Positions 3,117-31,923 of a stretch of 32,000 nucleotides of DNA are shown here, piece after piece. The position numbers and the translations under genes are program-made. The first letter of the stretch is position 1; every line of letters begins with the position of its first letter. The notes beneath the pieces were generated by a model. It saw nothing but the letters and a program-made list of their open reading frames with translations. It did not search any database and was not told the DNA's origin. The DNA is from an uncultured Chloroflexia bacterium (GTDB taxonomy: Bacteria; Chloroflexota; Ktedonobacteria; Ktedonobacterales; JADMIN01). The stretch lies in assembly GCA_963718915.1 (NCBI GenBank), contig CAVRAI010000010.1:9974-41973 (forward strand), written 5' to 3'.

Positions 3117-3159
3117 ATCACTATCTTTGCCCTCGTTGACCCTATCTCGTCATAGAGGA

Positions 3160-3199
3160 GGGATTAGAACCGCCACGGCCCCATGCGGTATAATCCTGA
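3160..3199 (+). repeat. Hairpin repeat family 1, degenerate copy A' (extended palindrome GGATTAG...TAATCC)
   Basis: gGGATTAGaaCCGCcacggccccatGCGGtaTAATCCTGA. It has the same ...GCGG-(C)TAATCCTGA tail as copies B and C. It contains a perfect TATAAT (3189-3194) that could serve as the -10 for the gene starting at 3274. Confidence 0.5.
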
Positions 3200-3273
3200 G
3201 GCGTAGCAGTGGCATCAACGGCTATCATCCAACCGCCAATCCTGTGTCCCATGCGGACAGCAATAGAGGTGTT

Positions 3274-5759: not shown

Positions 5760-5766
5760 TTTGGCG

Positions 5767-6534
5767 GTGGGCGTATTCTCCCGATTCACAAACTACATCA
5801 AGACGGTGATGAGCTCGTTCCTGGATCGCGCGGAAGATCCAGGGCAGACGCTCGACTACTCCTATGAGAAGCAGCTCGAACAGCTACAGAATCTGCGCCG
5901 GAGCATCGCGGACGTAGTGACGAACGAGAAGCGGCTCGAATTGCAACAGGCGCAGTTGAATCAGCAGATCGATAAGCTGGACGGTCAGGCCCGCCAGGCC
6001 ATGACGATGAACCGCGAAGACCTGGCGCGACTGGCTCTGGAGCGCAAACAGGGCTTGCAGGTGCAGATCGGCCAGTTTGGCACACAGATCGAGCAGCTCA
6101 AGGCGCAACAGGCGAAGTTCGTGGAGATGGAACAGCGTCTCAATACGAGGGTGGAGGCTTTCCGCACGCAGAAGGAGATGGTGAAGGCGCAGTACGGCGC
6201 GGCTCAGGCGCAGGTGAAGATCCAGGAGGCGGCGACGGGTATCTCCGAGGAGATGTCGGACGTGAACCTGGCGGTGCAGCGCGCGCAGGACAAGGTGTTG
6301 CAGATGCAGGCGCGCGCCAGTGCGCTGGACGAGCTGACCGAGTCGGGCACGCTGGCCGAGATTGGCCCAGGCGCGGTCGATCCGCTGGACCGCCAGCTTC
6401 AGCAACTCTCGACTCAGTCTGAGGTAGACCGCCAGCTTGCCGAGTTGAAGGCGCAGATGCAGTTGCCAGCGGGCCAGCAGGACCAGCAGAATCAGGCCCA
6501 GCTTCCGCCGCCGCCGATGCAGACCAACGATTAA
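5767..6534 (+). CDS. pspA: PspA/IM30 (Vipp1) family membrane-stress protein
   Basis: The track ORF starts at TTG 5761. I prefer GTG 5767, 7 nt after GAAGGAGG. The N-terminus (M)GVFSRFTNYIKTVMSSFLDRAEDPGQTLDYSYEKQLEQLQNLRR is followed by a long coiled-coil, typical of PspA. Q/P-rich tail. Confidence 0.85.
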   Translation: MGVFSRFTNYIKTVMSSFLDRAEDPGQTLDYSYEKQLEQLQNLRRSIADVVTNEKRLELQQAQLNQQIDKLDGQARQAMTMNREDLARLALERKQGLQVQIGQFGTQIEQLKAQQAKFVEMEQRLNTRVEAFRTQKEMVKAQYGAAQAQVKIQEAATGISEEMSDVNLAVQRAQDKVLQMQARASALDELTESGTLAEIGPGAVDPLDRQLQQLSTQSEVDRQLAELKAQMQLPAGQQDQQNQAQLPPPPMQTND

Positions 6535-6546
6535 GGAGGCTATCTC

Positions 6547-6861
6547 ATGCCCGTGATCGTACGCATCATGACGGAGAATCAGTATCGCCTCACCGATGAG
6601 GACGCCGCTGCGATGGACCGGATGGACGACCCGTTGCACGCGGCCATCGAGAGTGGCGATGAGCAGACCTTCGCGGCGGCGCTGGAGAAGGTGGTCGACT
6701 TCGTGCGCGAGAAGGGCACGGTGATTCCGGTGGAGGAGGTCGTTCCCTCGGACGTGATTGTTCCCGCGCCAGACATGACAGTTGCCGAGGCCCGACAATA
6801 TCTGCGGAAGGGCGATGAGGCGGTCGCCGCCGAAGCCGCATCGGGCGACGCCACAGAGTAG
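6547..6861 (+). CDS. Small acidic protein coupled to pspA; resembles what I recall as the PspA-associated PspAA family
   Basis: 104 aa. AAGGAGG lies 7 nt upstream, and the gene starts 12 nt after the pspA stop. MPVIVRIMTENQYRLTDEDAAAMDRMDDPLHAAIESGDEQTFAAALEKVVDFVREKG... The family name is from memory and has not been searched. Confidence 0.55.
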   Translation: MPVIVRIMTENQYRLTDEDAAAMDRMDDPLHAAIESGDEQTFAAALEKVVDFVREKGTVIPVEEVVPSDVIVPAPDMTVAEARQYLRKGDEAVAAEAASGDATE

Positions 6862-6881
6862 CCCGCACAGACACAAAGCAT

Positions 6882-6912
6882 CCCCTCACCGATTATGGTG
6901 GGGGGATTTCTC
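6882..6912 (+). terminator. Intrinsic-terminator-like hairpin after the pspA operon
   Basis: CCCCTCACC-gattat-GGTGGGGGG forms 9 bp including one U-G pair. It is followed by ATTTCTCTGTG, 20 nt after the stop codon. Confidence 0.55.
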
Positions 6913-6981
6913 TGTGCCCAATGGCCGACTTTGAGCAAACCGTTTGAAAGAATGATCTGGAGAGCCTGGGCTGTTCTGGGT

Positions 6982-7020
6982 GGAGCGTGCCACAGGCTGA
7001 AGCCCTGCGGCTAATCCTGA
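6982..7020 (+). repeat. Hairpin repeat family 1, copy B (stem partly decayed)
   Basis: ggagcgtgCCACAGGCtgaaGCCCTGCGGCTAATCCTGA, between convergent genes. Confidence 0.75.
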
Positions 7021-7035
7021 CAGGTACTGACGGCC

Positions 7036-7561
7036 CTACGACCCCCAGATGGAGGGTAGGTGATGGCTGCCCAGGCCAACGGCCAACTCACCGCCATGGT
7101 GGAAGTCGTGCCGGAGCACATGCATGATAATCTCCTGGCGCGTGCTTGGGCCAAAGATTTTGCGCTCTCTCTCCGTCAAGGCAGCCGGTGGGTTGAACAC
7201 GTATTCTAGGTCGGCGACAGTATAGCGGGAAAGAACCCCTTCGATCATGCCCCAGGTGGCGTTCAGTCCGGCAACCAGCTCGTCGGCTGAATGCACTGCC
7301 TTGACCTTCTTCTTCTTCCTCCCAGTGCATGAAGGCGGCTACCTCAGGACTTGCCTCGCCCATCCACAGATCGAACCACCAGATCCGGTCGTTGAGGATG
7401 TGCTGGACGAGCATCCCAATCGGCCAGTGCGTGGACGCGACCGGCAGGGCCAGTTGCTCAGGTGTCAGCGGCGCGACGACGTTGAGCAGGTCGCGCTGAA
7501 AGCTATCCCAACCTTTGTAGACTTGACTGAGCGAGAGCGACTGTTCCGTCACGTGTATCAT
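7036..7561 (-). pseudogene. DinB-family (DinB_2-like four-helix bundle) gene interrupted by a 1-nt frameshift
   Basis: Two overlapping track ORFs in different frames. ORF 7088..7561 carries the N-terminal half ...THWPIGMLVQHILNDRIWWFDLWMG...FMHWEEEE. ORF 7036..7296 carries the C-terminal half ...HSADELVAGLNATWGMIEGVL...IIMHVLRHDFHHGGELAV. The frames meet at the (CTT)4 / (GAA)4 run at 7306-7317. The true start may be GTG 7552 rather than ATG 7561. Confidence 0.6.
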
Positions 7562-7654
7562 CCCCCTTGCTTCTCATTCGACGCCATCACTCACGGCGGC
7601 TTGCCCAGTATGGCATGAAGAAGGCGAGCAAAGCTTCTTCTATCTTGCGCTTTC

Positions 7655-8653
7655 CTACTCGCTCCACCCCGCAGCCAGTCGTAGCAGGGTCTCACGATTG
7701 TCGGCCAGCCAGTCCTCGCGCCAGAGGGTCTGCTCAATGCGCTGCCTGAGAAAGTCGGCGGAGTCCAGCCCCTGTATGTAGCGCGTCATCCGATGGAGAA
7801 GTGAGCTTATGCTGCGCACCTGAAGCAGGGTGGGAAGCGCGGCTATCTCATCGTCGGTGAGGTGAATCTGGCTGGTGTAGCCCGTGCCCAGGGCGTTGAT
7901 GAGCGGCCATTCCTGACCGCTGCCGAGCAGTTCGATGGGCCACCAGCTGAGAGCAACGACAAGATCGAGGGCGCGCAGGTCGTACGTGCAGAATTCAAAG
8001 TCGAGCACCGCCGTCACAGTGGTTGCTTCCATCAGGATATTCGATGGTGCGTAGTCGCTGTGAACCATCTGGCAGGGCAGGGTCGCATAGAGCATCGGAA
8101 GCTCCGCATTGAGGCCATGATACAGGTCAGCGATCCGCTCTATCGCCGCCGCATCGCTGGTGAGCGTTGCCAGCGTCGTGATGGGGTCAGCCAGTGCTGG
8201 ATAGCGCCGCGTGAGATCGCCGAGCGGCGCGGGCATCCGGTCTCGCGGCAATGTGAGCGCGGCCAGCGCCTGGTCGAGTTGGCCGAGCGCCACAGCAGCC
8301 CCGAAGGCAGCCGCAGTATCCTGCCGGTCGGGATGGCCTCCCAATAGCCAGGGAAAGAGTGTGGCCATTTGACTACGCTGTTCGGCATCTGAAATCTCGA
8401 TATGGTAGTGACCAGCAGCGGTGGCGATGGGCGCTGGGATGGCAAAAGGCAGTCCCATATTTTGCAACGCGAGGAGGATCTGGAATTCCGCATCCAGGCG
8501 GGTGGCGTCCGCGTGATTGCGGTAGATACGCAAAACATATCGCCCACTGTCTGCGTCTACCAGATAGACGACATTGTTGGCCCCGCGCGTGAGCAGGGTC
8601 ATCCGCTGGGGAGCCAATGCTGGCCACGCGCCAACAAGCGCCGCGACATCCAT
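7655..8653 (-). CDS. Phosphotransferase-family kinase (APH / homoserine-kinase type II-like fold)
   Basis: ORF 7655..8782 trimmed to the ATG at 8653 (MDVAALVGAW...). Contains GANNVVYLV..RYVLRIY (nucleotide-binding lobe), MVHSDYAPSNILM (HxDxxxxN catalytic loop) and VLDFEF (DFG-like). Confidence 0.75.
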   Translation of the reverse strand: MDVAALVGAWPALAPQRMTLLTRGANNVVYLVDADSGRYVLRIYRNHADATRLDAEFQILLALQNMGLPFAIPAPIATAAGHYHIEISDAEQRSQMATLFPWLLGGHPDRQDTAAAFGAAVALGQLDQALAALTLPRDRMPAPLGDLTRRYPALADPITTLATLTSDAAAIERIADLYHGLNAELPMLYATLPCQMVHSDYAPSNILMEATTVTAVLDFEFCTYDLRALDLVVALSWWPIELLGSGQEWPLINALGTGYTSQIHLTDDEIAALPTLLQVRSISSLLHRMTRYIQGLDSADFLRQRIEQTLWREDWLADNRETLLRLAAGWSE

Positions 8654-8696
8654 AGCTGAAAACTCCGTACGTTCAATACATGGCAGGGTTGATCTG

Positions 8697-9155
8697 ATGG
8701 AAGAGAACGCGGTGATCGCTACGCGAGGCCGACGACGCAGGATACCACGGCGGCTCGTTGTGTTGCTGGTCGCGCTGCTCATCGTGGCGGCGGGCGTCTG
8801 GGTCGCGTTTCAGCCGCGCGTGGCGAACCACTTCAGTTATGCGCTGCCGGGTAGGGATGGCCTGCCGACCTACATCTATGCGCATGGGCGGCGCTACCAT
8901 TCGCTTCAGGTATGCGCCGGAGACGACTGGTGTCAGCGGGATCGCCTACAGCAGCTTATCCCGCGTTGCTACACGCAGGCCGATTTACAGGCGATGCATA
9001 TTTGGCCACTGGCACAGGTGAGCACGATGCTCACGCTGTTTGGCGCGCCGCAGCCTATTCTCTCGCCTCCGGGTGAGAGTGGCGTGATGCAATCGTTCGT
9101 GATGGCCGACGGCCCGGACTGCTATGTCATGTATGGGATGGAAGGCGGCATGTAG
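8697..9155 (+). CDS. Hypothetical N-terminally anchored protein with four Cys
   Basis: ORF 8574..9155 trimmed to the ATG at 8697 (MEENAVIATRGRRRRIPRRLVVLLVALLIVAAGVWV...). Arg-rich segment plus one TM helix, then a roughly 110-aa domain. No motif recognised. Confidence 0.5.
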   Translation: MEENAVIATRGRRRRIPRRLVVLLVALLIVAAGVWVAFQPRVANHFSYALPGRDGLPTYIYAHGRRYHSLQVCAGDDWCQRDRLQQLIPRCYTQADLQAMHIWPLAQVSTMLTLFGAPQPILSPPGESGVMQSFVMADGPDCYVMYGMEGGM

Positions 9156-9167
9156 CGGTCAATCGGT

Positions 9168-10379
9168 TTATGGATAGCTGGCAGCGCGTAAGTCCTGGTT
9201 GGTCCATGCCCAGAGGACACCATCGCCGGGGCCGGGATAGTAGCGGATCGCGGCGGACGATCCAGGAGCGGGGCCAAGCGATTGCCATGACTGAGCGCCG
9301 GGCGCCAGGCGATATTCCCACTCCGTCGCGGGGTCGTTAGGGCTATTGGAGGTTGCCAGAATCGCCCCATCGTCGGCGAGCGCGAAGACATCCGTTGGCG
9401 AGACGAACGTGCCTTTCACATTGGTGAATGACAGATTAAGCGCTGGGGCAGACTGCCAGGTCTGGCCGCCGTCTATCGAACATGCGAGTGTATTGGGCAG
9501 CGGGTTTTTGAGGTTCAGGTCATCATCATTGGCGACACACAGATGCCATGGCGTATCAGTTACAGGCGCCTGCACGACGGTTTCCGCGCTGGGCATGGCC
9601 AAATACGGAACAGCGATCTTTGCCCAGTGCACGCCAGCATCGGCGCTCGACCAGAAGACACTGGCATCTTTCACAAGTAGCGCGCCGTTCACCGGATTCA
9701 GCCAGAAGTCATTGCTATCAAAGCCACTGAAGTCCCCAATGCCCTGTAAGATCGGGCGCCAGGTGCGCATCTGATCGTTGCTGACCACTAGCTCGGGAAC
9801 TTCCTCGTCCTGCTGACCGTGAACGACGCGCAGGTAGCCATAGATGACGCCCGCAAGCGTGGAGAACTGGAAGGCCAGATAAGGCTGCTGCTTTGAGAGT
9901 TGACGCCAGGCGCTTCCACCGTCGAACGTCACGTAGCTGGTGTATAAGCTTACGGGAGGCGACGCGCCCAGCTTGGCCGCGACCACAGCCACTACGGCAG
10001 TATTTGGCTGGAGGCCATCCACAGTTGGATAGCATTGGTTTGTTCCCATGGACACCGAGATGTCGCCAACATGCGTCCAGTGCGCGGCGCGGTCTCGTGT
10101 GACCCAAACCGCAACGCGCGAACTGCCATTCGCCATACACATATAGGCGATATCGCCATCACCTGGCGCGACGGTGACAACACCCTCTGGATAGCTGACG
10201 ACGCCATCACCTGGGTAGGTCACGGCGTGCCAGGTGAGCGGAAGGCTGCTGGATGGGGTGTGGGTCACGGTCGCATGGGCGCTCGGATTCGTGGCCGCTG
10301 ACTGGCCACACGCCGCTATGAGTAGCAGCGGAAACGCGAGGGCGGGAAACGCGAACAGCTTGTGGCGTGGCCGGTTCAT
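9168..10379 (-). CDS. Lipoprotein with Asp-box (BNR) repeats; predicted beta-propeller
   Basis: ORF 9168..10478 trimmed to the ATG at 10379, preceded by GGAAGGAG. Signal peptide with lipobox LLLIAAC. Five Asp-box-like motifs: TRDRAAHW, TFDGGSAW, SNDQMRTW, SADAGVHW, SIDGGQTW. Confidence 0.7.
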   Translation of the reverse strand: MNRPRHKLFAFPALAFPLLLIAACGQSAATNPSAHATVTHTPSSSLPLTWHAVTYPGDGVVSYPEGVVTVAPGDGDIAYMCMANGSSRVAVWVTRDRAAHWTHVGDISVSMGTNQCYPTVDGLQPNTAVVAVVAAKLGASPPVSLYTSYVTFDGGSAWRQLSKQQPYLAFQFSTLAGVIYGYLRVVHGQQDEEVPELVVSNDQMRTWRPILQGIGDFSGFDSNDFWLNPVNGALLVKDASVFWSSADAGVHWAKIAVPYLAMPSAETVVQAPVTDTPWHLCVANDDDLNLKNPLPNTLACSIDGGQTWQSAPALNLSFTNVKGTFVSPTDVFALADDGAILATSNSPNDPATEWEYRLAPGAQSWQSLGPAPGSSAAIRYYPGPGDGVLWAWTNQDLRAASYP

Positions 10380-10559
10380 TGCCTCGCTCCTTCCAGGAGA
10401 GAAGCCAGGCGTATCGGTTATTGTTACCCGACGGTTTGGGTTGGCTTCTACCTGTATTAGACGAAAGACGCGGGCCATCTGTGCATGATGCTAATCGCTG
10501 TCTTTTGGGAGGAGGGCGCTATTCATTGCCCGAACGTTGCGCCTGGACGACCAATGCCA

Positions 10560-11144
10560 CTAGATGGGCACTTCCCAGACGGGGAACCAGCGCTCCAGCT
10601 CCGGCTCGACGGGCAGTTCTTTGCCGATGGCGGCGTTCAGTCGCATCTCCTCGGCGTTGTCGCGTCGGCGCTGGGGATCGTTGATATCGGTTTCGGGGAC
10701 GAACGGATAGAAGTAGCCGCGCTTGTAGTTGTACATCCAGTAGACTTCGTGGCCCTTCTCATCCTTGAAGGCGAACATCGCGAACATCAGCATGCTGCCA
10801 TAGCCCTTCGAGAGCAGCGTCTCGCTGGCGACGTGCAGTGTGGTGACGAGCGCCTGGAAGTCTTTGCCGCTGAAGATAAACCAGCGATAGTTGAACTTAT
10901 CCTCGAAGGGCTTGATGCTCAGTTGATCGTCGCGGCTCGTCAGTTCGAGCAGTTGCTCCAGTTCCTTCTGGATATCTTTGAACGGGCCAGATGCGACACC
11001 CTTGAAGCAGATCGCCGCGTTGCCAGTTGGCGTCAGGTGCTGGTCGGTTTCGAGCGTCAGTTGCGCCGTGGACATGGCGAACAGCCGCTCCGGGCCAACC
11101 GGAACCGGCTTTTGGCGACCGAACAGTGTGTCGAAGAAGCCCAT
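10560..11144 (-). CDS. Conserved soluble protein downstream of htpX; resembles what I recall as the PspA-associated PspAB family
   Basis: 194 aa. GGAGA lies 7 nt upstream of the ATG at 11144. MGFFDTLFGRQKPVPVGPERLFAMSTAQLTLE... has a balanced composition, unlike the antisense ORF 10485..11147. The family name is from memory. Confidence 0.65.
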   Translation of the reverse strand: MGFFDTLFGRQKPVPVGPERLFAMSTAQLTLETDQHLTPTGNAAICFKGVASGPFKDIQKELEQLLELTSRDDQLSIKPFEDKFNYRWFIFSGKDFQALVTTLHVASETLLSKGYGSMLMFAMFAFKDEKGHEVYWMYNYKRGYFYPFVPETDINDPQRRRDNAEEMRLNAAIGKELPVEPELERWFPVWEVPI

Positions 11145-11241
11145 TGATATATCTCCAATGTATGCGTGCCGATAGTGATGTTAGTGTATAACATGGCGAA
11201 GAATGGGGCCAACGGGCGTCTTTTGCCTACTGGGCGACGCT

Positions 11242-11282
11242 CGCCGTAGCCTGAAGGCTACGGCTAATCCTGATCCACTCGT
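11242..11282 (+). repeat. Hairpin repeat family 1, copy C (intact)
   Basis: ggcgacgctcgCCGTAGCC-tgaa-GGCTACGG-CTAATCCTGA. Perfect 8-bp stem (11253-11260 / 11265-11272). Confidence 0.9.
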
Positions 11283-11369
11283 GTTCGCCTTCTACAAGCA
11301 AAGAAGCTCAACGCACGAGACTAGCCGCACTCTACGGGCCGCTGGCGCTACGCTCGCGCGCCTGCGGGC

Positions 11370-11400
11370 TTCAGCCTGCGGCCTGCTCGCCTCACAGTCA
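11370..11400 (-). repeat. Hairpin repeat family 1, copy D (no CTAAT tail)
   Basis: CCTGCGGGC-ttca-GCCTGCGG-cctgctcgcc. 8 bp including two G-U pairs. The head motif gctcgcc is conserved. Confidence 0.7.
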
Positions 11401-11414
11401 AACCTCGCCATTCC

Positions 11415-11489
11415 GATCCGCTCGATCCGCTGCCGATCCGCTGCCGATCCGCTGCCGATCCGCTGCCGATCCGCTGCCGATCCGCTGCC
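11415..11489. repeat. Tandem repeat: 11-bp unit GATCCGCTGCC, 6 perfect copies plus one truncated copy
   Basis: Perfect copies at 11424, 11435, 11446, 11457, 11468 and 11479, preceded by gatccgctc (11415-11423). The array ends 7 nt from the htpX stop codon (11497-11499). An 11-bp period is not a multiple of 3. Confidence 0.95.
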
Positions 11490-11496
11490 ATTGCCA

Positions 11497-12459
11497 TTAC
11501 AGATTGCGCGCGCTCTCCATCTGCTGCTGCATCTCCTGCAACTGCGCCAGTCGCTTCTCCAGCGAGGGGTGTGTCGAGAAGAGCGTCGCCAGCGAATCGC
11601 CCTTGAGCGCGGGCACGATGAACAATGCATTGACCGCTGTCGCCTGCCGGAAGTCTTTCGCCGGAATACGGTTACCTTCGATGGTGCCGCTAATGCGCAT
11701 CAGCGCCGAGGCCAGATGCTCTGGTGCGCCGGTAATCAGCGCCGAGCCGCGGTCAGCCGCCAGTTCGCGATAGCGCGAGAGTGCGCGGATCAGGATGAAG
11801 CTGATGACATACGTGACGACCGACGCCAGAATCGCGATCAGCACGATCATGCCGCCGTTGTCGTTGTTGCCACCGCCACGACGCCCATAGCCACCGCCCA
11901 TGCCGCCAAACATCGCGGACCACATGAAGCTACGCACCAGCAGCGCGGCGATCATCGAGAAGAACGTCGCAATCGTCATCACCAGCATGTCGCGGTTGAT
12001 GATGTGTGTCAACTCGTGCGCGACCACCGCCTCGATCTCTGGCTGTGACAGCCCACTGCCCTGCATGAGGCCGGTCGTGATGGCAACCACAGCATGATTG
12101 GCGTCGCGTCCCGTGGCGAAGGCGTTCGGAATCGAAGTCTCGACGATAGCAATCTTCGGCTTGGGCAGATTGGCCTGCGCCGCCAGCCGACCGATCATAT
12201 CGTGAAGCTGTGGCGCCTGCTGTTCATCGACAAATTGCGCCTTCATCGAAGAAAGCGCGATCTTATCGGAGAAGAACAGCTGGAAGCCAGCAATCAATAG
12301 CGCGCCGATAATAAGCAGCGGCCAGGGTATGTGAACCACAAATCCCAGGACACCGACGAAGGCGACGTAAACCAATCCCAGCAGAAACATGGTCAGCACC
12401 ATGCGTGCCGCTAACCCGGCGTCTGGCTTATACCAGCGTGGTTTTCCCTGCGTTGCCAT
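11497..12459 (-). CDS. htpX: HtpX-type M48 zinc metalloprotease
   Basis: ORF 11497..12465 starts at TTG. I prefer the ATG at 12459, 8 nt after GAGGAG. Contains two N-terminal TM helices, NAFATG, the HELTHIINRD (HExxH) motif, a Gly-rich insert and a C-terminal STHPSLEKRLAQL. Confidence 0.9.
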   Translation of the reverse strand: MATQGKPRWYKPDAGLAARMVLTMFLLGLVYVAFVGVLGFVVHIPWPLLIIGALLIAGFQLFFSDKIALSSMKAQFVDEQQAPQLHDMIGRLAAQANLPKPKIAIVETSIPNAFATGRDANHAVVAITTGLMQGSGLSQPEIEAVVAHELTHIINRDMLVMTIATFFSMIAALLVRSFMWSAMFGGMGGGYGRRGGGNNDNGGMIVLIAILASVVTYVISFILIRALSRYRELAADRGSALITGAPEHLASALMRISGTIEGNRIPAKDFRQATAVNALFIVPALKGDSLATLFSTHPSLEKRLAQLQEMQQQMESARNL

Positions 12460-12725
12460 GCTCAAAGCTCCTCAGCGACTCATGCCTCCAAGGCGCACTC
12501 GCTGTATGTGTTCGCGACAGAATCCAGTGCGCGCCAGCAATCCATCCGCGATCCTGCCCCCTGCTGGCGCACACACTCATCAGGTATACGCTTCAGTCCG
12601 GTCACGAGTAGCATAGCGCAATAGCCATGCCCAGTCCAGTTTATCGCGATTGGATGAGAAGGTTCCAATCTCCCGGCGAATCTTGTCTTCGAGGCTTATT
12701 GTTTATTGCTGAAAGGAAGGATTAC

Positions 12726-13681: not shown

Positions 13682-14029
13682 CTAGTCTTTGTTCTGGCGC
13701 TCTTTCTCTTTCAGCGCTTTGTAATACTGACGCGACCGCGGATGGCGCTCGCTATCCTCGTAGGCTGGCCGCACGTCGTCGTCGCTGGGTTTTCGCCCCT
13801 CCAGGCCGTCAATGATTTCTTGCAGGTCATTATAGATGGCGTAATTATCAATTGCTTCGCGCTGGCGCAGGAGGTGGCGCAGCATCATCATCTGGGAGAA
13901 TGAGGTCGAGCTGTTCCGCTCGGATTCGGCGCGTTTGATGAATTTATCGACCAGGTCAATCGAGTCTTCGTTTGCGCCATTCTGTTCGAGTTGCTCGCGG
14001 ATGGCCTCTAACTGTTCGTATGCATTCAT
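13682..14029 (-). CDS. Hypothetical small helical, charged protein
   Basis: ORF 13682..14131 trimmed to the ATG at 14029, preceded by GGGAGCGAGGAAG. MNAYEQLEAIREQLEQNGANEDSIDLVDKFIKRAESE... No motif recognised. More AT-rich than its neighbours. Confidence 0.55.
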   Translation of the reverse strand: MNAYEQLEAIREQLEQNGANEDSIDLVDKFIKRAESERNSSTSFSQMMMLRHLLRQREAIDNYAIYNDLQEIIDGLEGRKPSDDDVRPAYEDSERHPRSRQYYKALKEKERQNKD

Positions 14030-14101
14030 CGCTTCCTCGCTCCCTTCAGGCGTACTCTCGTGTGTCTGGCACAGAATGCGCGATGGGCATTCCAGCAAGT
14101 C

Positions 14102-14131
14102 ATTATATCGCATAGAAAAAAACGGTGTCAT
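14102..14131 (-). promoter_or_regulatory. Candidate sigma70-type promoter for the gene 13682..14029
   Basis: On the minus strand: ATGACA, an 18-nt spacer, then TATAAT. On the plus strand these read tgtcat (14126-14131) and attata (14102-14107). Confidence 0.5.
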
Positions 14132-14182: not shown

Positions 14183-14258
14183 GCATGGTATGCTCTGTGT
14201 AGCGTAAGCGGCGTCGGCGTGGAATACGTTGCCTGAAGAACAGGATAGGAGGCGTCAG

Positions 14259-14591
14259 GTGTTCTATCGCCGCGACCGCCCGGCGTCGCTCGCCGTGACG
14301 GTGATCCTCTTGATGCTCTGGCTCCTGCTGGCGGTCTATCTCATCACCCATCCCGATTTGGTCAGTATCATCGTGCTGGTGGTCACCGCGCTCTTCGCCG
14401 GATTCGCCGTCTTCGTCTCGTTTGTGGTACGGCGGGCGGAGAGTGAGCAGCCCGACGACCTCACCTACATGCCATCCAGAGATATGGCCAACGGCCACCA
14501 TCGCGTCATCCCAATGGCTGATGACACGCAGAACACCGATGCGAACACGATGCAACGGGAGATTCCAGACGAGGGAGGCGATACCCCATGA
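14259..14591 (+). CDS. Small two-TM membrane protein with an acidic tail
   Basis: The track ORF starts at 14229. I prefer GTG 14259, 6 nt after AGGAGG. (M)FYRRDRPASLAVTVILLMLWLLLAVYLITHPDLVSIIVLVVTALFAGFAVFVSFVV... Its stop overlaps the next gene's start (ATGA, 14588-14591). Confidence 0.6.
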   Translation: MFYRRDRPASLAVTVILLMLWLLLAVYLITHPDLVSIIVLVVTALFAGFAVFVSFVVRRAESEQPDDLTYMPSRDMANGHHRVIPMADDTQNTDANTMQREIPDEGGDTP

Positions 14592-19701: not shown

Positions 19702-20733
19702 ATGGCATTATCTTCTTCACGGATTCCGGTGGCGGTGGTCAACGGCACTGGATATGGCGGCGGCGAGCTATTACGACTGCTGCGCCGCCACCCGATGTTT
19801 GAGCTTGTCGAGGTGACGGCACGCTCGGATGCAGGTCAGCGCATCGGCGATGTCTTTCCACATTTGGGACACATGGAGCGCACCTTCGGCGAGGACGTAA
19901 CGCGGGCGGAGCTGGTCTTCGTCGCCCTGCCAGATGACGCCGCCATCGAGTGCGTTCCTGAGTATCTGCGCGCGGGCCGACGGGTAGTGGACCTCTCGGC
20001 GGGCTTCCGGTTGCGCGAGCGGGCGCTCTATCCGCGCTGGTACGGCTACGAGCATCCAGCGCCCGCACTGTTGGAGTCGGCGGTCTATGGGCTGGCCGAG
20101 TGGGCGCGCGACGAACTGCCCAATGCTCAACTCGTCGCGGTACCGGGCTGCTATCCGACGGCTGCGCTCCTGCCACTGCTGCCGCTGCTGGCCGCCAATA
20201 TGATCGAGCCTGATGTGATTGTGGATGCCAAGTCGGGCGTGAGCGGAGCGGGGCGCACGCTGCGCCTGAGCAGCCACTTCAGCGAGGTGAACGAGGACGT
20301 GAGCGCCTATGGACTGGGCGGCCATCGCCACCTGCCCGAGATTCGCCAGCAGCTCGAACGCGCCGCCGATACGCCTGTGCGGCTGACTTTCACGCCGCAT
20401 CTCGTGCCGATGACGCGCGGCATCCTGGCGACCAGCTACGCGACTCCGCGCCCCGGTGTGACGCTCGACGACGCGCGCGCCGCGCTGGAAAGCGCCTACC
20501 TTGGCTCACCGTTCGTGTGGGTGATGGAGCAGCCGCCACACACGAAGTGGACGCTCGGTGGGAACCTCTGTTACATCACGCCCGCGTGGGACACCGAGAG
20601 CGAGCGGCTGATTCTGGTAAGCGCAATCGATAATCTGGTGAAGGGCGCGGCGGGCCAGGCGATTCAGTGCGCCAATCTGATGTATGGACTGGACGAGGCG
20701 GTAGGATTGCCGCGCGAAGGAGTGTACCCCTGA
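19702..20733 (+). CDS. argC: N-acetyl-gamma-glutamyl-phosphate reductase
   Basis: 343 aa. VAVVNGTGYGGGELLRLL (NAD(P)-binding N-terminus), PGCYPTAALL (active-site Cys), typical C-terminal NLVKGAAGQA. Confidence 0.93.
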   Translation: MALSSSRIPVAVVNGTGYGGGELLRLLRRHPMFELVEVTARSDAGQRIGDVFPHLGHMERTFGEDVTRAELVFVALPDDAAIECVPEYLRAGRRVVDLSAGFRLRERALYPRWYGYEHPAPALLESAVYGLAEWARDELPNAQLVAVPGCYPTAALLPLLPLLAANMIEPDVIVDAKSGVSGAGRTLRLSSHFSEVNEDVSAYGLGGHRHLPEIRQQLERAADTPVRLTFTPHLVPMTRGILATSYATPRPGVTLDDARAALESAYLGSPFVWVMEQPPHTKWTLGGNLCYITPAWDTESERLILVSAIDNLVKGAAGQAIQCANLMYGLDEAVGLPREGVYP

Positions 20734-21617
20734 TGGCGGACGCGATAGCAAGTGTGGGTGAGCTGGCGGCTGCCAGCCAGGTTGCGCGACACGCCGTCAT
20801 CGCGCAGGTGCTGCGTGAGGCGCAACCGTACATCGAGACGCTGCGGGGGCGGACGCTGGTCATCAAGCTGGGCGGCAGCACGCTCGACAATCAACGCGAC
20901 GCGCTCGAAGATATCGTCTGGCTGCGCGGATTGGGCGCGCACCCGGTGCTGGTGCATGGCGGCGGGCCAGAGATCAACGACTGGCTGGAGCGGGTGGGCC
21001 TGCCGCGACGATTCGAGCGCGGCCTGCGCGTAACCGACGCCGCGACGCTCGATGTCGTGCGGATGGTGCTTGCGGGCAAGGTGAACGGCGACCTGGTGCG
21101 GCTGCTCGTGAGCCTGGGCGGCAGGGCCATCGGTCTCTCTGGCATCGACGGCGGCCTGCTTCATGCGCGCCAGATTGCGGCTGACCTGGGCTATGTTGGC
21201 GCGGTCACCAGTGTGGACGCCGGGGTCATTACGGCGTTGAGCGCGGCTGGCTTCATCCCGGTTATCGCGCCCATCGCGCTGGGGGATGACAATACGGTGC
21301 TGAATGTCAACGCCGATGACGCCGCCGCCGATCTGGCTCGCGGCCTGAGCGCCACCAAGCTGCTCTATCTGAGCGACGTTCCTGGCGTCCTGGATGCGCA
21401 GGGCAGACTGCTCTCGGTGCTGACCGACCATGAGGTGCGGGCGTTGATCGATCAGGACGTGATCTCCGGCGGGATGATCCCGAAGGCGGAGGCGGCGCTG
21501 CGGGCGCTGGAGACGACCGAGCGCGTCCACATCGTCGATGGCCGCGAGCCACACGTGCTGATCCGCGAGCTTTTCACGCACGAAGGCGCGGGCACGATGA
21601 TCCAGCGGGCGCGATAG
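20733..21617 (+). CDS. argB: Acetylglutamate kinase
   Basis: ORF 20667..21617 trimmed to the ATG at 20733, which overlaps the argC stop (TGATG) and follows GAAGGAG. Motifs: LVIKLGGS, VLVHGGGPEIN, NVNADDAAADLA, GGMIPK. Confidence 0.93.
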   Translation: MADAIASVGELAAASQVARHAVIAQVLREAQPYIETLRGRTLVIKLGGSTLDNQRDALEDIVWLRGLGAHPVLVHGGGPEINDWLERVGLPRRFERGLRVTDAATLDVVRMVLAGKVNGDLVRLLVSLGGRAIGLSGIDGGLLHARQIAADLGYVGAVTSVDAGVITALSAAGFIPVIAPIALGDDNTVLNVNADDAAADLARGLSATKLLYLSDVPGVLDAQGRLLSVLTDHEVRALIDQDVISGGMIPKAEAALRALETTERVHIVDGREPHVLIRELFTHEGAGTMIQRAR

Positions 21618-21785: not shown

Positions 21786-23474
21786 ATGAGCAATTACGCG
21801 CATACACGGGCACGCACACACCGCACGTCGGCAGCGGCATTGGACGATGAGAAGAGCCGCGTGGCCCTGCGCCCTTCCACGCGCGACCAGACGGGGAGCG
21901 ATGACGCCTCCCTAACCCCTGAGAATGCCTCTCCGGCCAATGCCGCGCTCAATGATCCGAGCTATAACTTTGGCCAGATTGCCGTTCAGCCCGCGCCAGC
22001 AATGGAGCCGCAGACGAAGCTGCGTGTCAGCCAGCCGGGCGATGCCCACGAGCAAGAGGCGGACCAGGTGGCCGACGCGGTGCTGCGCCTGCCCGCCACT
22101 GAGACAGCGAGCTCGGGTGGCGATACCGCCGCGCACACGACGACCAGCCAATCGGGCGCGCAAGAGGCTATTCCTGGCAGCGACGGCCAGCCGCTCGATG
22201 CGGCGACGCGCGCCTATATGGAGCCGCGCTTCGGCCACGACTTCGGCCACGTCCGCGTCCATTCCGACGAGCAGTCGGCGCTGGCGGCGGCGGACTACCA
22301 TGCGCGGGCGTATACCGTCGGCAGCGACATCGTCTTTGGCGCGCAGGAGTATGAGCCTACCACTACTGCCGGGCAGCATCTGCTGGCGCACGAGCTGACC
22401 CACGTTGTCCAGCAAGGGAGCGATACGAAGGCCGCCGAGACAGTGCAGCGCGAACCGGTAGAAGCTGCCGTTCCCGATGTTTCCGTGGCGACCGGAAAAA
22501 AGGTGGCGCCAGATCGGATGAACGATGAGGAACTGGCCGAGGGCGTCCTGCACAAGTTGCATGGCATCCTTGGGGCATGGAAAACCGCCCTCAACAACTT
22601 CTACGTCGTCCTGGTAAGTTCGTCAGATAAGGAAACCAGGCCCAATCTTCCGGGTGTGCTGCTGGACTTTCTTCGTGAGGAGGCGATAGGCGAGATCATC
22701 AAATATGTCCCGCTGCAGATGGGGAGAGCCTATAAGTTGCTGACCAGTCTAGGAACAGAAGATAAACGGGCGCAGGCGGCGCAAGACTCGGCAAAACTGC
22801 GCGATTTTGTGGTTTCTCACGCATCGGCTATTGGGGATATGGAAACTGCGGTGGAGAACAGCTGGAGTGACTTTAAGGCCAGCGTTCGCCTGACCGCTGA
22901 GGCGATGAATGAAGGCGAACAGCCTACCGCCACCGGCAAGAAGGGCAAGGGCAAGTGGGGTGTTGAGACGTCCTCACCAGCAACCAAAGTGTTCGATGAT
23001 TACTCGATGATGCGCATGGCGTTGCTCAATACCTACGAGGCGTTAGATATACAGGCGGGCTTCGCAACCGCCGCCAACCTATTCCGACTGTTGAGTGAGG
23101 AATGGATCCGGGGAACTATGGTCAAGGAAGGGTGGGACATGCGGCACGCACGGATCGTCATCCATCTGAACAAAGACTACTCCGTGAAGGATGCGCATAT
23201 CGAAGGAGCGGGCGGCACGAAGATCGCTGAACAACTCGTTAAAGACGCAGCGACGCACAATCTGGACGGCGTTGACCTGTACAACATGAATGTACGGAAG
23301 GAAGTGCAATACTTTGGCCACGACAGCGGCTATCCCAGCGCCTACGTCTACCTCGACGAGGAGAACCACATTCGCGATGCGATGCGCGATGACGAGGGCA
23401 CAGCCGCACTCTGGGCATATATCAGAAACAACGGGGCCAGGGCACTCATGGCTAAGAAGATGGATAGCGACTGA
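21786..23474 (+). CDS. DUF4157-domain (HExxH zincin-like) protein with an uncharacterised C-terminal domain
   Basis: 562 aa with GAGGG upstream. Disordered N-terminus, then SQPGDAHEQEADQVADAVLR and GQPLDAATRAYMEPRFGHDFGHVRVHSDEQSALAAADYHARAYTVGSDIVFGAQEYEPTTTAGQHLLAHELTHVVQQG. This matches the DUF4157 signature as I know it. Residues ~225-562 match nothing I recognise. Confidence 0.85.
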   Translation: MSNYAHTRARTHRTSAAALDDEKSRVALRPSTRDQTGSDDASLTPENASPANAALNDPSYNFGQIAVQPAPAMEPQTKLRVSQPGDAHEQEADQVADAVLRLPATETASSGGDTAAHTTTSQSGAQEAIPGSDGQPLDAATRAYMEPRFGHDFGHVRVHSDEQSALAAADYHARAYTVGSDIVFGAQEYEPTTTAGQHLLAHELTHVVQQGSDTKAAETVQREPVEAAVPDVSVATGKKVAPDRMNDEELAEGVLHKLHGILGAWKTALNNFYVVLVSSSDKETRPNLPGVLLDFLREEAIGEIIKYVPLQMGRAYKLLTSLGTEDKRAQAAQDSAKLRDFVVSHASAIGDMETAVENSWSDFKASVRLTAEAMNEGEQPTATGKKGKGKWGVETSSPATKVFDDYSMMRMALLNTYEALDIQAGFATAANLFRLLSEEWIRGTMVKEGWDMRHARIVIHLNKDYSVKDAHIEGAGGTKIAEQLVKDAATHNLDGVDLYNMNVRKEVQYFGHDSGYPSAYVYLDEENHIRDAMRDDEGTAALWAYIRNNGARALMAKKMDSD

Positions 23475-23498
23475 GATGCTAGGGTATCCCGTGGGCCG

Positions 23499-25259
23499 CT
23501 ACCGTGTCGCTACCATATCCATCCTATCTAATTCAGCAACCTCAAGCGTCTCGGCTTTCTCCTCAGCAGTGGGCGCGGTGGCGATTGGCCGGGCGCGGCG
23601 GTGCTGCCTGCGCGAAACGAGCGCGCGCACGGCGAGGGCCGTCCAGACGCTCAGGACCATCGGCAGGAACCAGAACGCGATGCTGGAAGGGAATCCCTGG
23701 ATCAGCGTGAGCAGGCTCTGCGGTGTTTCGCCATTCCTGAGGGGGACGGCCCCGCCGCTGCTGATGAGCGGCCAGTAGAGGTCGGTCAGCGGGAAGGGCA
23801 GATAGGTGTGATAGATGCGCACGCCGAGCGCGACGAAGAGGAAGGATATCGCCACCCCATAGACAAGCGAGACGGCGAACGCGACGCGCAGCCAGCGGCG
23901 CGGATGATCCACCACCCAGGCGAGCGCCAGACAGGCAAAGGGCAGCATCGGCACCAGCAGTCGCGGGCCGGGCAGGTTCTCGCCCGCCATCGGCAGGAAG
24001 TACGATGAGATCGCCAGTGGATAGAGCACGACCACTGCCAGTGAGACCAGCGCCTCAGGCGTGCCGGGCGCCTGAATCGTTGCCCAGATCCGTCTCAGCC
24101 CGCGCCTGAGTGCCGACGATGCCAACGATGCTGACGAGGTGGCGCCTGTGGATACTGTGGCGGTTGCGCGATAGCCCCGGCGCAGCCAGCGCAGCAGACC
24201 CAGCGGCACGAGCAGCAGGAATGGCGACTCCATCAGCAGCCCGCGCGGGAAAGTCAGCGTTGACCAGAGACTATCCAGGTGCGGTGTGGTTATGCCAAAG
24301 AACCCGTCGTGCTGCCCGGAGAACGAAGGATCACTGACATAGGCGTAACTGAGATGAAGCGGGCTGCCAAAGGCAAACCAGTTATACCATCCCAGCAGCA
24401 GCACGCTCGGTATCAGGCCAACGATGAACGCGCCGGTCATCAGGATGCGCTGTCGTGGGAAGACCAGCCAGATATAGGCGAACAGCACGACAACAATCAC
24501 CCCGACGGGATACTCGCTGATGACCGCCAGGCCCAGCAGCATGCCAGACAGAATCACCCATAAACCGGCGTTCTCTTTCTCGCGGGCGCGGTAGAGCAGA
24601 TAGAAGCCGATGAAGGCAAGACCGCCGCCGAAGGCATGGCTGAAGAAGGTCGTCGAGAAAGGGTAGGCCAGCGTACCTAGCGCAAAGGCCCCCGCCACCA
24701 CCATCGGCAGTGGAGTGGACGCCAGCGAGGGGCGCAGGTGCGCGACAAAACGGCGCAGCGCCACCGCAGCCATAATGGCGACCGGCAGCACCGTCAATGC
24801 GTTCAGGTAGGCGATCTGCTGGGTCAGAGTAAACTGTGTCGTGTTGTCGATGTTGGCGATGTGACTGAGCAGCCAGAGCAGCGGCGTCGCCAGCAGCGAG
24901 AGGCCGAGCGAGCGCGGCGAATACCAATGCCCCTGGTAGTAGCTTACGTCGATGGTATTGCCCGCGTGGATATCGATGATCGCCGTACTATGCGCCAGCG
25001 CATAGACCATGTCATAACGGCTGAGTGTGTTGGTACCGGCAGGTGTCAGATAAAAGACATAGCACAGCGTGAGCAGACCGGCAAAGGCACGGTCACTCTG
25101 GTATAGTCGCGCAAGTATCTGTGGTATTGTCCCCCAGATTTGCCGCAATCGTGTCCTGGATATCGGGGCAGACGCGACGGTTCGTACGGCGGGACCCAGT
25201 GACGTTATATAGGTCAACCAGCGCTCGCCCGCCGTTCTTTTCATTTCCTGGCTACGCAT
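23499..25259 (-). CDS. Large polytopic membrane protein, GT-C-fold (ArnT/PMT_2-like) glycosyltransferase candidate
   Basis: The track ORF 23499..25307 starts at GTG. Alternative ATG starts are at 25259 and 25244. More than 10 hydrophobic segments. The first loop, RYDMVYALAH...DVSYYQGHWYSPRSLG, parallels the DExxY...Y.EKPPL loop of GT-C enzymes only loosely. Confidence 0.55.
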   Translation of the reverse strand: MRSQEMKRTAGERWLTYITSLGPAVRTVASAPISRTRLRQIWGTIPQILARLYQSDRAFAGLLTLCYVFYLTPAGTNTLSRYDMVYALAHSTAIIDIHAGNTIDVSYYQGHWYSPRSLGLSLLATPLLWLLSHIANIDNTTQFTLTQQIAYLNALTVLPVAIMAAVALRRFVAHLRPSLASTPLPMVVAGAFALGTLAYPFSTTFFSHAFGGGLAFIGFYLLYRAREKENAGLWVILSGMLLGLAVISEYPVGVIVVVLFAYIWLVFPRQRILMTGAFIVGLIPSVLLLGWYNWFAFGSPLHLSYAYVSDPSFSGQHDGFFGITTPHLDSLWSTLTFPRGLLMESPFLLLVPLGLLRWLRRGYRATATVSTGATSSASLASSALRRGLRRIWATIQAPGTPEALVSLAVVVLYPLAISSYFLPMAGENLPGPRLLVPMLPFACLALAWVVDHPRRWLRVAFAVSLVYGVAISFLFVALGVRIYHTYLPFPLTDLYWPLISSGGAVPLRNGETPQSLLTLIQGFPSSIAFWFLPMVLSVWTALAVRALVSRRQHRRARPIATAPTAEEKAETLEVAELDRMDMVATR

Positions 25260-25268
25260 ATATCCGTT

Positions 25269-25298
25269 AGTATACCGGGCACAATGGCCTCTCGCCAA
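25269..25298 (-). promoter_or_regulatory. Candidate promoter for the GT-C-like gene
   Basis: On the minus strand: TTGGCG, an 18-nt spacer, then TATACT. On the plus strand these read cgccaa (25293-25298) and agtata (25269-25274). The -10 ends 9 nt before the ATG at 25259. Confidence 0.45.
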
Positions 25299-25337
25299 CA
25301 CACTCACCGTAAACGGCAGGCATTGTTTCAGGTTGTT

Positions 25338-30686: not shown

Positions 30687-30738
30687 CGGCGAGGCATCGT
30701 GCGGCAAATAGCCAGGAGTGGTGAAAGGGAGCGGGCAG

Positions 30739-31923
30739 ATGAGTGATGCGCAGGGGGTCTCGGCGCAGGACGACACAGCGCCTATAGCGGCGAATCCGTC
30801 AGCGGCGTCATCAAAGGTGGAGCGCGCTTCGAGCGGTCGGCTGATCCGCCTGCTGGCGACGGTTGGCGCGCTTGTCTTCGCGTATGGCGCGTGGCTGCCC
30901 TGGGCCATCATCGCGGCTGCTCTCGGCGAGAGGCAGAGTTCGCCGGAGCTTGTTGACCCAAACATTGCCTTTACATCGCATCTGGTGAATCTGGGGAGCC
31001 TCGCGCCAACAGCGTTCGAGGTAGCGGCGTTCTCGGTGCTTGGCCTGCTGCTCGCGCCGCTGCTCTGGCGGCCCGCCGATTCGCTGCTCGGCGCGATTGC
31101 CACGCACATCTTCGGGCTATGGCTGATCTTCGCCACAGTTTTCGTCATCGCGTTTGGCCTATCGCCGCTCGTCTCTGGCACGCCGCAGCCGTTAATACCT
31201 AGCACAGGGCTTCTCGCCAACAGCATAACCATCACTGGCCATCTCGCCCTCGGCTTCTGGGTGGCGGCGGCGGCGCTGATTCCGATGTGGATCGCGGTCA
31301 TTGGTCTGCTAATTGGTGAGTGGCGCAGACACGCTTTCTGGCACCTCCCCGGCAATGACGAGGACAGGCCCCGCTCGATCATCCAGCTCCCCGGCGCGGG
31401 TGTGCTGAATCTTGGCCTCATCATCTGGGCGTTCGGGTTCCTGTCGGCGGGCTGGGCTGCGGTCAATTGCAGTCAGACGCCGCTGCTCCTCGGCAGTTGC
31501 CGGGGTGTTTCCGGCCCCAGCGCGCTCTTCGCTGGACTCGCGCAGGCGACTGGAAATGTCGTCGTTACCTCGGCCAACGACCCAAATATGCTGCTCTTCC
31601 TCGACCCGAATATCGCTCAGAACGCGATTGGCATCCTGCTGGGCATTGGCGCGGCGATGATCTTCATTGGCGTCTGGCTGCGCGCCGTGACCCGCACGTT
31701 CTGCGTCTGGACGACGCTCTGGCTGATAGCGGCGGTCGCGCTCGTCGGGCTGGCAAATTCGGGCGTCGGCGCCATCATCGCGCACCCCACACGCTATGGG
31801 CTATCCGCCGGAACCTGGACCGCGCAGGTAGGTGTCTTTATCACACTGATCGGATTGATCATCGCGCTGGTGGGCCTGACCACGCTCTCGGCCACCGCCC
31901 TGCTGCGCAGGAATGTGGAGTAG
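30739..31923 (+). CDS. Polytopic membrane protein, function unknown
   Basis: ORF 30718..31923 trimmed to the ATG at 30739, 8 nt after AAGGGAG. About 10 hydrophobic segments. No motif recognised. Confidence 0.6.
   Translation: MSDAQGVSAQDDTAPIAANPSAASSKVERASSGRLIRLLATVGALVFAYGAWLPWAIIAAALGERQSSPELVDPNIAFTSHLVNLGSLAPTAFEVAAFSVLGLLLAPLLWRPADSLLGAIATHIFGLWLIFATVFVIAFGLSPLVSGTPQPLIPSTGLLANSITITGHLALGFWVAAAALIPMWIAVIGLLIGEWRRHAFWHLPGNDEDRPRSIIQLPGAGVLNLGLIIWAFGFLSAGWAAVNCSQTPLLLGSCRGVSGPSALFAGLAQATGNVVVTSANDPNMLLFLDPNIAQNAIGILLGIGAAMIFIGVWLRAVTRTFCVWTTLWLIAAVALVGLANSGVGAIIAHPTRYGLSAGTWTAQVGVFITLIGLIIALVGLTTLSATALLRRNVE

Follow-up and report, generated by a model that had tools for sequence, protein, structure and literature searches.

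We report that an effector-like gene beside the arginine biosynthesis genes of an uncultured member of the Ktedonobacterales (Chloroflexota) probably encodes an orphan cargo of a contractile injection system (CIS), the CIS itself being encoded elsewhere in the genome. The gene lies at 21786..23474 (+ strand) of a 32,000-nucleotide stretch of contig CAVRAI010000010.1, called the window throughout, and specifies a protein of 562 amino acids (aa). Three lines of evidence carry this reading. The protein contains a DUF4157 domain, which has an odds ratio of 2614 for extracellular CIS (eCIS) loci (PMC8213781); four homologs that share this domain as well as the C-terminal domain (CTD) are encoded within or beside CIS clusters; and, at a single fixed site in the Ktedonobacterales, one type of CTD has been replaced by another while the gene has remained under purifying selection.

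Domain architecture

The open reading frame (ORF) has an ATG start in the ORF list and has intact orthologs on 13 Ktedonobacterales contigs. A Pfam profile scan places PF13699 (formerly DUF4157, now eCIS_core) at aa 136-212 (22191..22421, +) with an E value of 4.3e-32 and 110.5 bits, where the curated gathering cutoff is 22 bits; profile positions 1-77 of 79 are aligned, and the domain is 70-91% identical among orthologs. The motifs from which a preliminary description of this DNA had recognized a DUF4157 protein are all present. These are PGDAHEQEADQVA at aa 84-96 (22035..22073, +), a pre-domain motif that is common in DUF4157 proteins and recurs in the N termini of many members of the CTD family; MEPRFGHDFGHVRVH at aa 145-159; and LLAHELTHVVQQ at aa 199-210, with the HExxH zinc-metallopeptidase-type motif, HELTH, intact at aa 202-206 (22389..22403, +) inside the PF13699 domain.

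The domain order is an N-terminal region of disorder-type composition, then DUF4157, then the CTD. The N-terminal region (aa 1-135; 21786..22190, +), a putative loading signal by analogy with characterized cargos, is acidic and of low complexity, with a grand average of hydropathy of -0.80, 61% disorder-promoting residues, and 2% aromatic residues; its disorder is judged from composition. A VQREP linker (22443..22457, +) marks both the junction at which CTDs are replaced and the position of a step in GC content. This linker, TVQREP in its longer form at the CTD junction (window 22443-22457), has similar counterparts, VQRDP and LQRAP, that precede the same CTD in proteins without DUF4157 (P0011 and P0013), and it could serve in processing or as an anchor for recombination. 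The window protein has no signal peptide or known trafficking domain, and its CTD holds no second HExxH. Promoter and terminator scans around the gene gave nothing above the shuffled expectation. A second ORF (23290-23778), overlapping the gene at its 3' end, was dismissed as a shadow ORF, as its GC2 exceeds its GC1 and it runs antisense to the neighboring membrane-protein gene.

The C-terminal domain family

Searches of Pfam, NCBIfam, PADLOC, PHROGs, and the sequences of the PDB gave no match for residues ~225-562, in agreement with the preliminary description, which had recognized nothing in this part of the protein. Profile and sequence searches of the PDB likewise returned nothing; a weak match to RNA polymerase subunit L (E=0.03, PDB) was disregarded as chance. 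The domain nevertheless has a family of its own. A word-indexed search of 5.8 billion proteins yielded 13 relatives, and an exhaustive profile search of 1.84 billion cluster representatives yielded 200 at E<=1e-3 and 125 at E<=1e-10. The matching genomes include Ktedonobacterales, other Chloroflexota, Rubrivivax, Caldimonas, Rhodospirillales, Acetobacteraceae, Solirubrobacteraceae, and Mangrovibacterium. The family spans the Chloroflexota, Bacteroidota, Proteobacteria, and Actinomycetota and is rare and patchy across phyla.

The domain sits C-terminally in nearly all full-length profile matches, behind a range of N termini. PF13699 is N-terminal in 40 of the 99 full-length members, ~19 further full-length members start with a "...QRxxGNxA..." motif (by a crude motif count), at least two start with a hydrophobic, signal-peptide-like segment, and PG_binding_1 or LysM occurs in single members. 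Literature searches returned nothing on the N-terminal IGNQAV motif or on polymorphic toxins in Ktedonobacteria. One 615-aa member without DUF4157, from a Rubrivivax metagenome-assembled genome (L016:2682-10936), follows genes for an extracytoplasmic function sigma factor, a Ser/Thr kinase with tetratricopeptide repeats, and a 977-aa OmpA-like protein; in this setting the domain may be delivered or regulated in another way.

An alignment of the 99 members shows A268, F272, E325, A332, and W440 to be nearly invariant, and F341 and G477 are conserved in an alignment of 95 sequences. The closer relatives share SAxLRDF and GGxKIAEQL motifs, with G476, G477, K479, and A481 invariant. None of these conserved residues points to a known catalytic site. 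The family proteins (e.g., P0008-P0013, P0016, and P0172) end in a conserved "...GLPxTKxLTGD" tail at the very C terminus; the tail of the window protein, ...AKKMDSD (23436-23471), is degenerate.

The AlphaFold2 model of the CTD (mf64da2ff8c15) is confident, with a predicted local distance difference test score of 87.5. It has helices at CTD residues 8-204 and strands and helices at 205-322, a predicted shape of a long helical bundle with a small alpha/beta head. The helical subdomain (aa ~247-443; 22524..23114, +), made of long helices, is the most variable part between the allele types described below (32-39% identity between type A and the B types); the alpha/beta subdomain (aa ~444-562; 23115..23471, +), in which AGGTKIAEQL is the window's form of GGxKIAEQL, is 53-68% identical between allele types. 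Foldseek searches with both models against the PDB, and against BFVD, reached at best E ~0.1 with query-normalized template modeling scores of <=0.26. The top matches (e.g., ABC exporters, BAR domains, and designed bundles) are generic long-helix proteins, from which no function was read.

Homologs in injection system clusters

All four of the informative family members that join DUF4157 to this CTD outside the argB locus of the Ktedonobacterales are encoded in or beside CIS clusters, a small sample of four cases; for a further protein, P0083, the contig is too short to judge. P0016 (Mangrovibacterium, 516 aa) directly follows a CIS tape-measure gene (PF19268, CIS_TMP) and AAA+ genes, and P0074 (510 aa) does likewise and is itself followed by a second, 1753-aa DUF4157 protein. 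P0172 (522 aa) is flanked on one side by Pvc16_N/WHD-AAA and on the other by a DUF4157 gene, the sheath, two gp19 tube genes, CIS_tube, and a VgrG-like spike, while P0171 (523 aa) adjoins AAA, Pvc16_N, and DUF4157 genes. P0172 shares 42.6% identity with the window protein over aa 132-550, across DUF4157 and the whole CTD (E=4e-103), and its cluster belongs to the Chloroflexota. At 69-73% identity, the sheath encoded there matches sheaths from source records that name Ktedonobacterales, Ktedonobacteraceae, Thermogemmatispora, and Roseiflexaceae, and it has >8000 relatives at E<=1e-30. CIS have been documented in the class Ktedonobacteria (PMC12998442; supplement of PMC8213781), and the CIS lineage of the Chloroflexota is related to the cytoplasmic CIS of Streptomyces (PMC12998442).

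Two of the loci hold further detail. A complete Chloroflexota-type CIS cluster (L104:7291-21569) encodes three DUF4157 proteins (522, 717, and 657 aa), the last of them between the tube genes and the tube-initiator gene. At the P0016 locus, a 115-aa ORF (L020:11514-11861) overlaps the 3' end of the CIS-embedded gene, with a patatin gene and a GerE regulator after it; we weighed this ORF as a possible immunity or chaperone gene and set it aside, as it has no counterpart in the window or at the other loci.

Several observations weigh against a CIS cargo. Sheath, tube, baseplate, spike, CIS_TMP, Pvc16, and AAA+ genes were not found among the scanned ORFs of the window, and ten genes or fewer separate ~88% of the known eCIS-associated toxins from the operon (PMC11297309). 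A CIS in the same organism is supposed, our data being a 32-kb window of the source genome. Nor is the CTD exclusive to CIS, because family members without DUF4157 (P0008, P0011, and loci L014-L019) have no CIS genes within 10 kb, and some of them carry a signal-peptide-like N terminus, PG_binding_1, or LysM. The CTD is without a catalytic signature or a fold match, and its toxicity is purely an assumption. One would not usually expect an accessory effector to keep stable synteny beside arginine biosynthesis genes throughout an order.

Exchange of C-terminal domains at the argB locus

The gene occupies the same site on all 13 Ktedonobacterales contigs: it follows argC and argB, it is met by convergent genes for a membrane protein and an amidohydrolase, and recG lies beyond these wherever the contig reaches. 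All of the relatives are metagenome contigs or metagenome-assembled genomes, and the query of the metagenome scan was aa 1-224. The closest genomes share 95-98% identity in ArgB, 89-95% in the membrane protein, and 97-100% in the amidohydrolase, and these genomes carry four CTD types at the locus with 37-52% identity between types. Type A is found in the window, L003, and L001 (76-78% identity within the type); type B1 in L004 and L011 (94%); type B2 in L005, L009, L010, L012, L013, L022, and L023 (71-98%); and type C in L024 as its single member, at 51% identity to the stand-alone protein P0008 and 49% to P0016. The types are discordant with the flanks, in that near-identical backgrounds carry A, B1, B2, or C, and type A is common to the window and the most distant genome, L001 (ArgB 87%). 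Because type A retains 76-78% identity with that most distant genome, it is old within the lineage.

The replacement has a sharp boundary. Before and through the VQREP linker, L004 and L023 share 93% identity, and beyond it 51%; nucleotide identity between the window and other alleles runs at 90-97% in argB, collapses at ~22380-22460, and recovers to ~90% a short way into the convergent gene. For the window against L003, synonymous divergence (dS) is 0.25-0.33 in the flanks and 1.2-1.6 in the CTD, 4-5 times as high, although the CTD values are rough because dS above 1 is near saturation; the corresponding ratio of nonsynonymous to synonymous divergence (dN/dS) in the CTD is 0.11-0.13. Across the segments of the gene with an estimable dS, dN/dS is 0.1-0.4, which indicates purifying selection. 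(A dN/dS of 1.40 for the membrane protein between the window and L009 was discarded as a coordinate or frame artifact.) Since the dS of the CTD far exceeds that of the flanks at low dN/dS, and since the types are discordant with the flanks, the CTD alleles are old and functional and have been moved by recombination and are not merely fast evolving.

In L001, a tandem 762-aa DUF4157 paralog (L001:1149-3437) lies between argB and the ortholog, P0002; it has the same N-terminal domain (NTD) and DUF4157 domain with an unrelated C terminus of ~550 aa, for which there is no Pfam or PHROG match and no relative among the fetched loci. Of the IS605-type OrfB/TnpB genes (Cas12f1-like_TNB) here, one is inserted between argB and the effector gene in L004 (L004:1781-2983) and another adjoins the amidohydrolase gene in L003 (L003:7060-8239), from which we conclude that mobile elements visit the argB locus.

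The constancy of the site could be taken to mean that the protein is a resident non-effector, namely, a DUF4157-type zinc metallopeptidase with a regulatory or structural CTD, a cell-envelope or developmental role, and a position in the core genome. Its presence at the same site on every related contig, its purifying selection (dN/dS about 0.1-0.3), its intact HExxH, and the lack of an immunity gene would all suit such a protein. We regard it as distinctly unlikely, however, given that the gene evolves far faster than its neighbors (aa 1-135 are 40-77% identical where ArgB is 86-98% identical), that, inside a single species-level group, the CTD has given way to types of only 37-52% identity, that an extra paralog with a different CTD has been inserted in L001, and that the family is rare (~200 clusters, against >8000 relatives of the sheath) and patchy across phyla. 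The preliminary description had named synteny of the full-length gene, uniform composition, and a housekeeping fold as grounds for abandoning an effector; synteny does hold across the order, whereas the composition is not uniform and no housekeeping fold was found.

The exchange data would also suit a polymorphic toxin or secreted effector that leaves the cell by a non-CIS route and serves in competition between strains, with its immunity gene elsewhere or absent. The conserved N-terminal part, the sharply variable CTD, and the discordant allele types are all expected of such a toxin, some members of the CTD family bear signal-peptide-like N termini, PG_binding_1, or LysM in place of DUF4157, and the scanned ORFs of the window are free of CIS genes. 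We nonetheless think this route unlikely: the window protein has no signal peptide or known trafficking domain, and DUF4157 is highly CIS specific (PMC8213781); 24 bp to a convergent gene leave no downstream immunity ORF; the four allele types are one homologous CTD family rather than unrelated toxin domains; and full-length homologs lie inside CIS clusters.

The composition step within the gene

The GC content of the gene falls from 0.671 in codons 1-224 to 0.554 in codons 225-562, and the fall is seen at every codon position (GC1 from 0.714 to 0.601, GC2 from 0.527 to 0.393, and GC3 from 0.772 to 0.669). No step in the 32-kb window is larger than this one of 0.117 at ~22457-22472, which falls at the domain junction; of the junctions tested, only 0.16% show one as large, all of them within 22400-22600, and the CTD is the lowest-GC 1-kb stretch of the window. 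The switch in composition reported by the preliminary description is therefore real, and its hand counts of G+C (44/60, 33/60, 31/60, 34/60, and 39/60) reproduce exactly. Its interpretation of the switch as the mark of a foreign, swapped-in cassette is not supported.

On that interpretation, the low-GC half of the gene would be a recently acquired cassette as yet unadapted to the composition of its host, which we consider highly improbable. The size of the step and its position at the domain junction, the lower GC3 of the CTD (0.669 against 0.772 in the N-terminal part), and a CTD dS between the window and L003 that is 4-5x that of the flanks, and hence a separate allele history, do favor it. 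Against it, we computed the GC content expected from the amino acid sequence and the codon usage of 19 other genes of the window and obtained 0.658 versus 0.584 for the two parts, such that amino acid content accounts for ~63% of the step. The residuals of the CTD (-0.030 in GC and -0.077 in GC3) fall within the spread of native genes of the window, such as those at 1455, 9168, and 12627. The step from high to low GC is present in 10/10 orthologs (N-terminal part 0.66-0.69, C-terminal part 0.54-0.58), with every CTD type and in distant genomes, which counts strongly against a recent import, and type A is old within the lineage. Because amino acid content explains most of the step, the residual is native-like, and all 10 orthologs share it, the step is a stable property of the domain and does not mark foreign DNA. 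As a point of method, a conspicuous change of GC inside a gene can belong stably to a domain rather than signal recent transfer.

A model for an orphan cargo

If the gene encodes an orphan CIS cargo, we infer its loading, delivery, target, and biochemical activity as follows. The N-terminal ~135 residues would act as a loading signal, by analogy with the AlgoCIS cargos Cgo1 and Cgo2, whose NTD is needed for loading (10.64898/2026.05.27.728243). The DUF4157/eCIS_core domain, with its HExxH, would tether or process the cargo at the spike, the tube initiator, or the AAA+ loading apparatus; the analogy with Cgo1 and Cgo2 suggests that its part is accessory, and the analogy with the DUF4157 proteins of Streptomyces suggests contact with the spike complex. 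The CTD of ~320 residues would be the payload, released on contraction of the sheath, and homologous recombination would swap it between old allele types, at least four in number, with the DUF4157-coding region and the downstream gene as conserved arms. Since the CIS lineage of the Chloroflexota resembles that of Streptomyces, which is cytoplasmic, the target of the payload may be the mycelium of the producer itself, in regulated cell death or development, for example. Should the Chloroflexota CIS fire inside the cell, as has been proposed (PMC12998442), a role directed at the producer would agree with the lack of an immunity gene.

A bolder extension of this model, which we advance only tentatively and hold to be fairly unlikely, is that the CTD is a new-fold effector family of a Chloroflexota-type, Streptomyces-like, and possibly cytoplasmic CIS. 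The argB locus would then have kept at least four CTD types in a long-lived balanced polymorphism without an immunity gene, and the CTD type would set the specificity of a self- or kin-directed process in a mycelial bacterium (such as CIS-mediated regulated cell death, developmental lysis, or kin discrimination) rather than serve as a classical antibacterial toxin.

Comparison with known systems

The closest architectural parallel is with Cgo1 and Cgo2, tube-lumen cargos of AlgoCIS with an NTD, a DUF4157 domain, and a CTD (PMC8894135; preprint 10.64898/2026.05.27.728243). The window protein shares their three-part order of an NTD, a central DUF4157 domain, and a variable CTD, with an NTD of disorder-type composition where theirs is disordered, and at 562 aa it is similar in size to Cgo1 (498 aa). 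Its homologs P0016 and P0074 are placed correspondingly in their operons, immediately behind the genes for the tape measure and AAA+ proteins, and the second, larger DUF4157 protein that follows P0074 recalls the Cgo1/Cgo2 pair. The claim of the preliminary description that this is an effector-like DUF4157 protein with a variable payload is borne out by this architecture, by the homologs in CIS clusters, and by the exchange of CTDs at the end of the DUF4157 region. There are differences as well. The window gene is outside a CIS operon; a second HExxH is reported in the CTD of Cgo1 (PMC8894135) and is absent from the CTD of the window protein; and loading and location in the tube lumen have been demonstrated for Cgo1 and Cgo2, while for the window protein they are presumed. 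A profile search seeded with Bacteroidota sequences for a link to Cgo1 gave no Algoriphagus match, the reach of this search being limited by its word-based prefilter.

The eCIS-associated toxins (EATs) described by Geller in 2021 (PMC8213781) and Danov in 2024 (PMC11297309) also have DUF4157 upstream of a variable, usually unannotated CTD, and they often lack immunity genes. Like EATs, homologs of the window protein (P0016, P0074, P0172, and P0171) are encoded inside or beside CIS clusters; the window gene itself has no CIS operon within about ten genes among the scanned ORFs and, unlike the ~88% of EATs that are that close to an eCIS operon, sits among housekeeping genes. A further difference is that in the Ktedonobacterales the CTD type varies between strains at a fixed locus, a situation for which we found no description among EATs.

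In Streptomyces, DUF4157 proteins bind proteins of the spike complex, as shown for Tme/BN159_7576 (PMC11126660) and SLIV_17110/Sle2 (10.1101/2025.11.06.686954). Tme and SLIV_17110 come from the CIS lineage phylogenetically closest to that of the Chloroflexota (PMC12998442), their host is mycelial and sporulating, and no immunity partner of Sle1, the partner effector, came to light. Tme, however, exceeds 2000 aa and combines nuclease regions with tape-measure-like ones, the cluster-encoded SLIV_17110 is a small adaptor, and neither has been reported with the CTD described here.

Polymorphic toxins (Rhs, CDI, and WXG/LXG) resemble the argB locus in their conserved N-terminal part and sharp junction to alternative CTDs (here at ~22380-22460), in the exchange of alleles by recombination, and in tandem paralogs with a different CTD, as in L001. 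They differ in that the locus has no adjacent immunity gene that covaries with the CTD, that its alternative CTDs are diverged versions of one family, and that the protein has none of the known trafficking domains of Rhs, CDI, or WXG/LXG systems.

DUF4157 proteins with unannotated C termini are already known to be common: no other annotated domain was present in 983 of the 1130 predicted DUF4157 EATs (PMC11297309). New here are the delimitation of one CTD family, a predicted fold without a Foldseek match in the PDB or BFVD, and the exchange of at least four CTD alleles at one locus flanked by housekeeping genes, with no immunity gene. Payload activities are the main unknown of the field, since most predicted DUF4157-type CIS cargos have unannotated C termini, and one payload family is now delimited (~200 clusters) and tied to CIS clusters by genomic context. 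If the reading of the gene as a CIS cargo is confirmed, the argB locus would offer a tractable case for what drives cargo diversification, especially in the Chloroflexota/Streptomyces-like CIS lineage, and the CTD would be a new effector domain for engineered injection systems.

Flanking genes and the remainder of the window

On the 5' side, the conserved flank is argB (acetylglutamate kinase; 20667..21617, +), which carries PF00696 in the orthologous loci and is 86-98% identical among them. On the 3' side, a 24-bp spacer (23475..23498), in which no terminator-like site was found, separates the gene from a convergent, 602-aa membrane-protein gene (23499..25307, -) that is 72-95% identical among relatives. 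The preliminary description was right about the convergent orientation and the 24-bp distance of this neighbor, while its label, "glycosyltransferase-like," could not be verified, the protein having no family match in Pfam, NCBIfam, PADLOC, PHROGs, or the PDB. It was right, too, that no immunity gene is obvious nearby. The 24-bp gap leaves no room for a codirectional immunity gene, and the convergent gene does not covary with the CTD; the identity of the membrane protein follows the genome background rather than the CTD type of the effector. This multipass protein has a locally variable patch at ~24024-24165, which is likewise independent of the CTD type.

No CIS or secretion genes are present among the scanned ORFs of the window, which cover 21.8 kb upstream and 8.5 kb downstream of the gene, as the preliminary description had stated, and scans for Rfam families and tRNAs were empty. 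The scanned ORFs are ordinary metabolic, stress, or repair genes together with a few that have no Pfam match, four of which lie at 3127-4263, 13682-14131, 14229-14591, and 30718-31923. The recognizable genes include those for ComA, a pentapeptide protein, PGM, PspA, PspAB, an M48 peptidase, argC, argB, the amidohydrolase, and recG. Within this set, 5761-12465 forms a phage-shock-type neighborhood, with PspA/IM30 (5761-6534), PspA-associated protein B (10560-11144), and the M48 peptidase (11497-12465).

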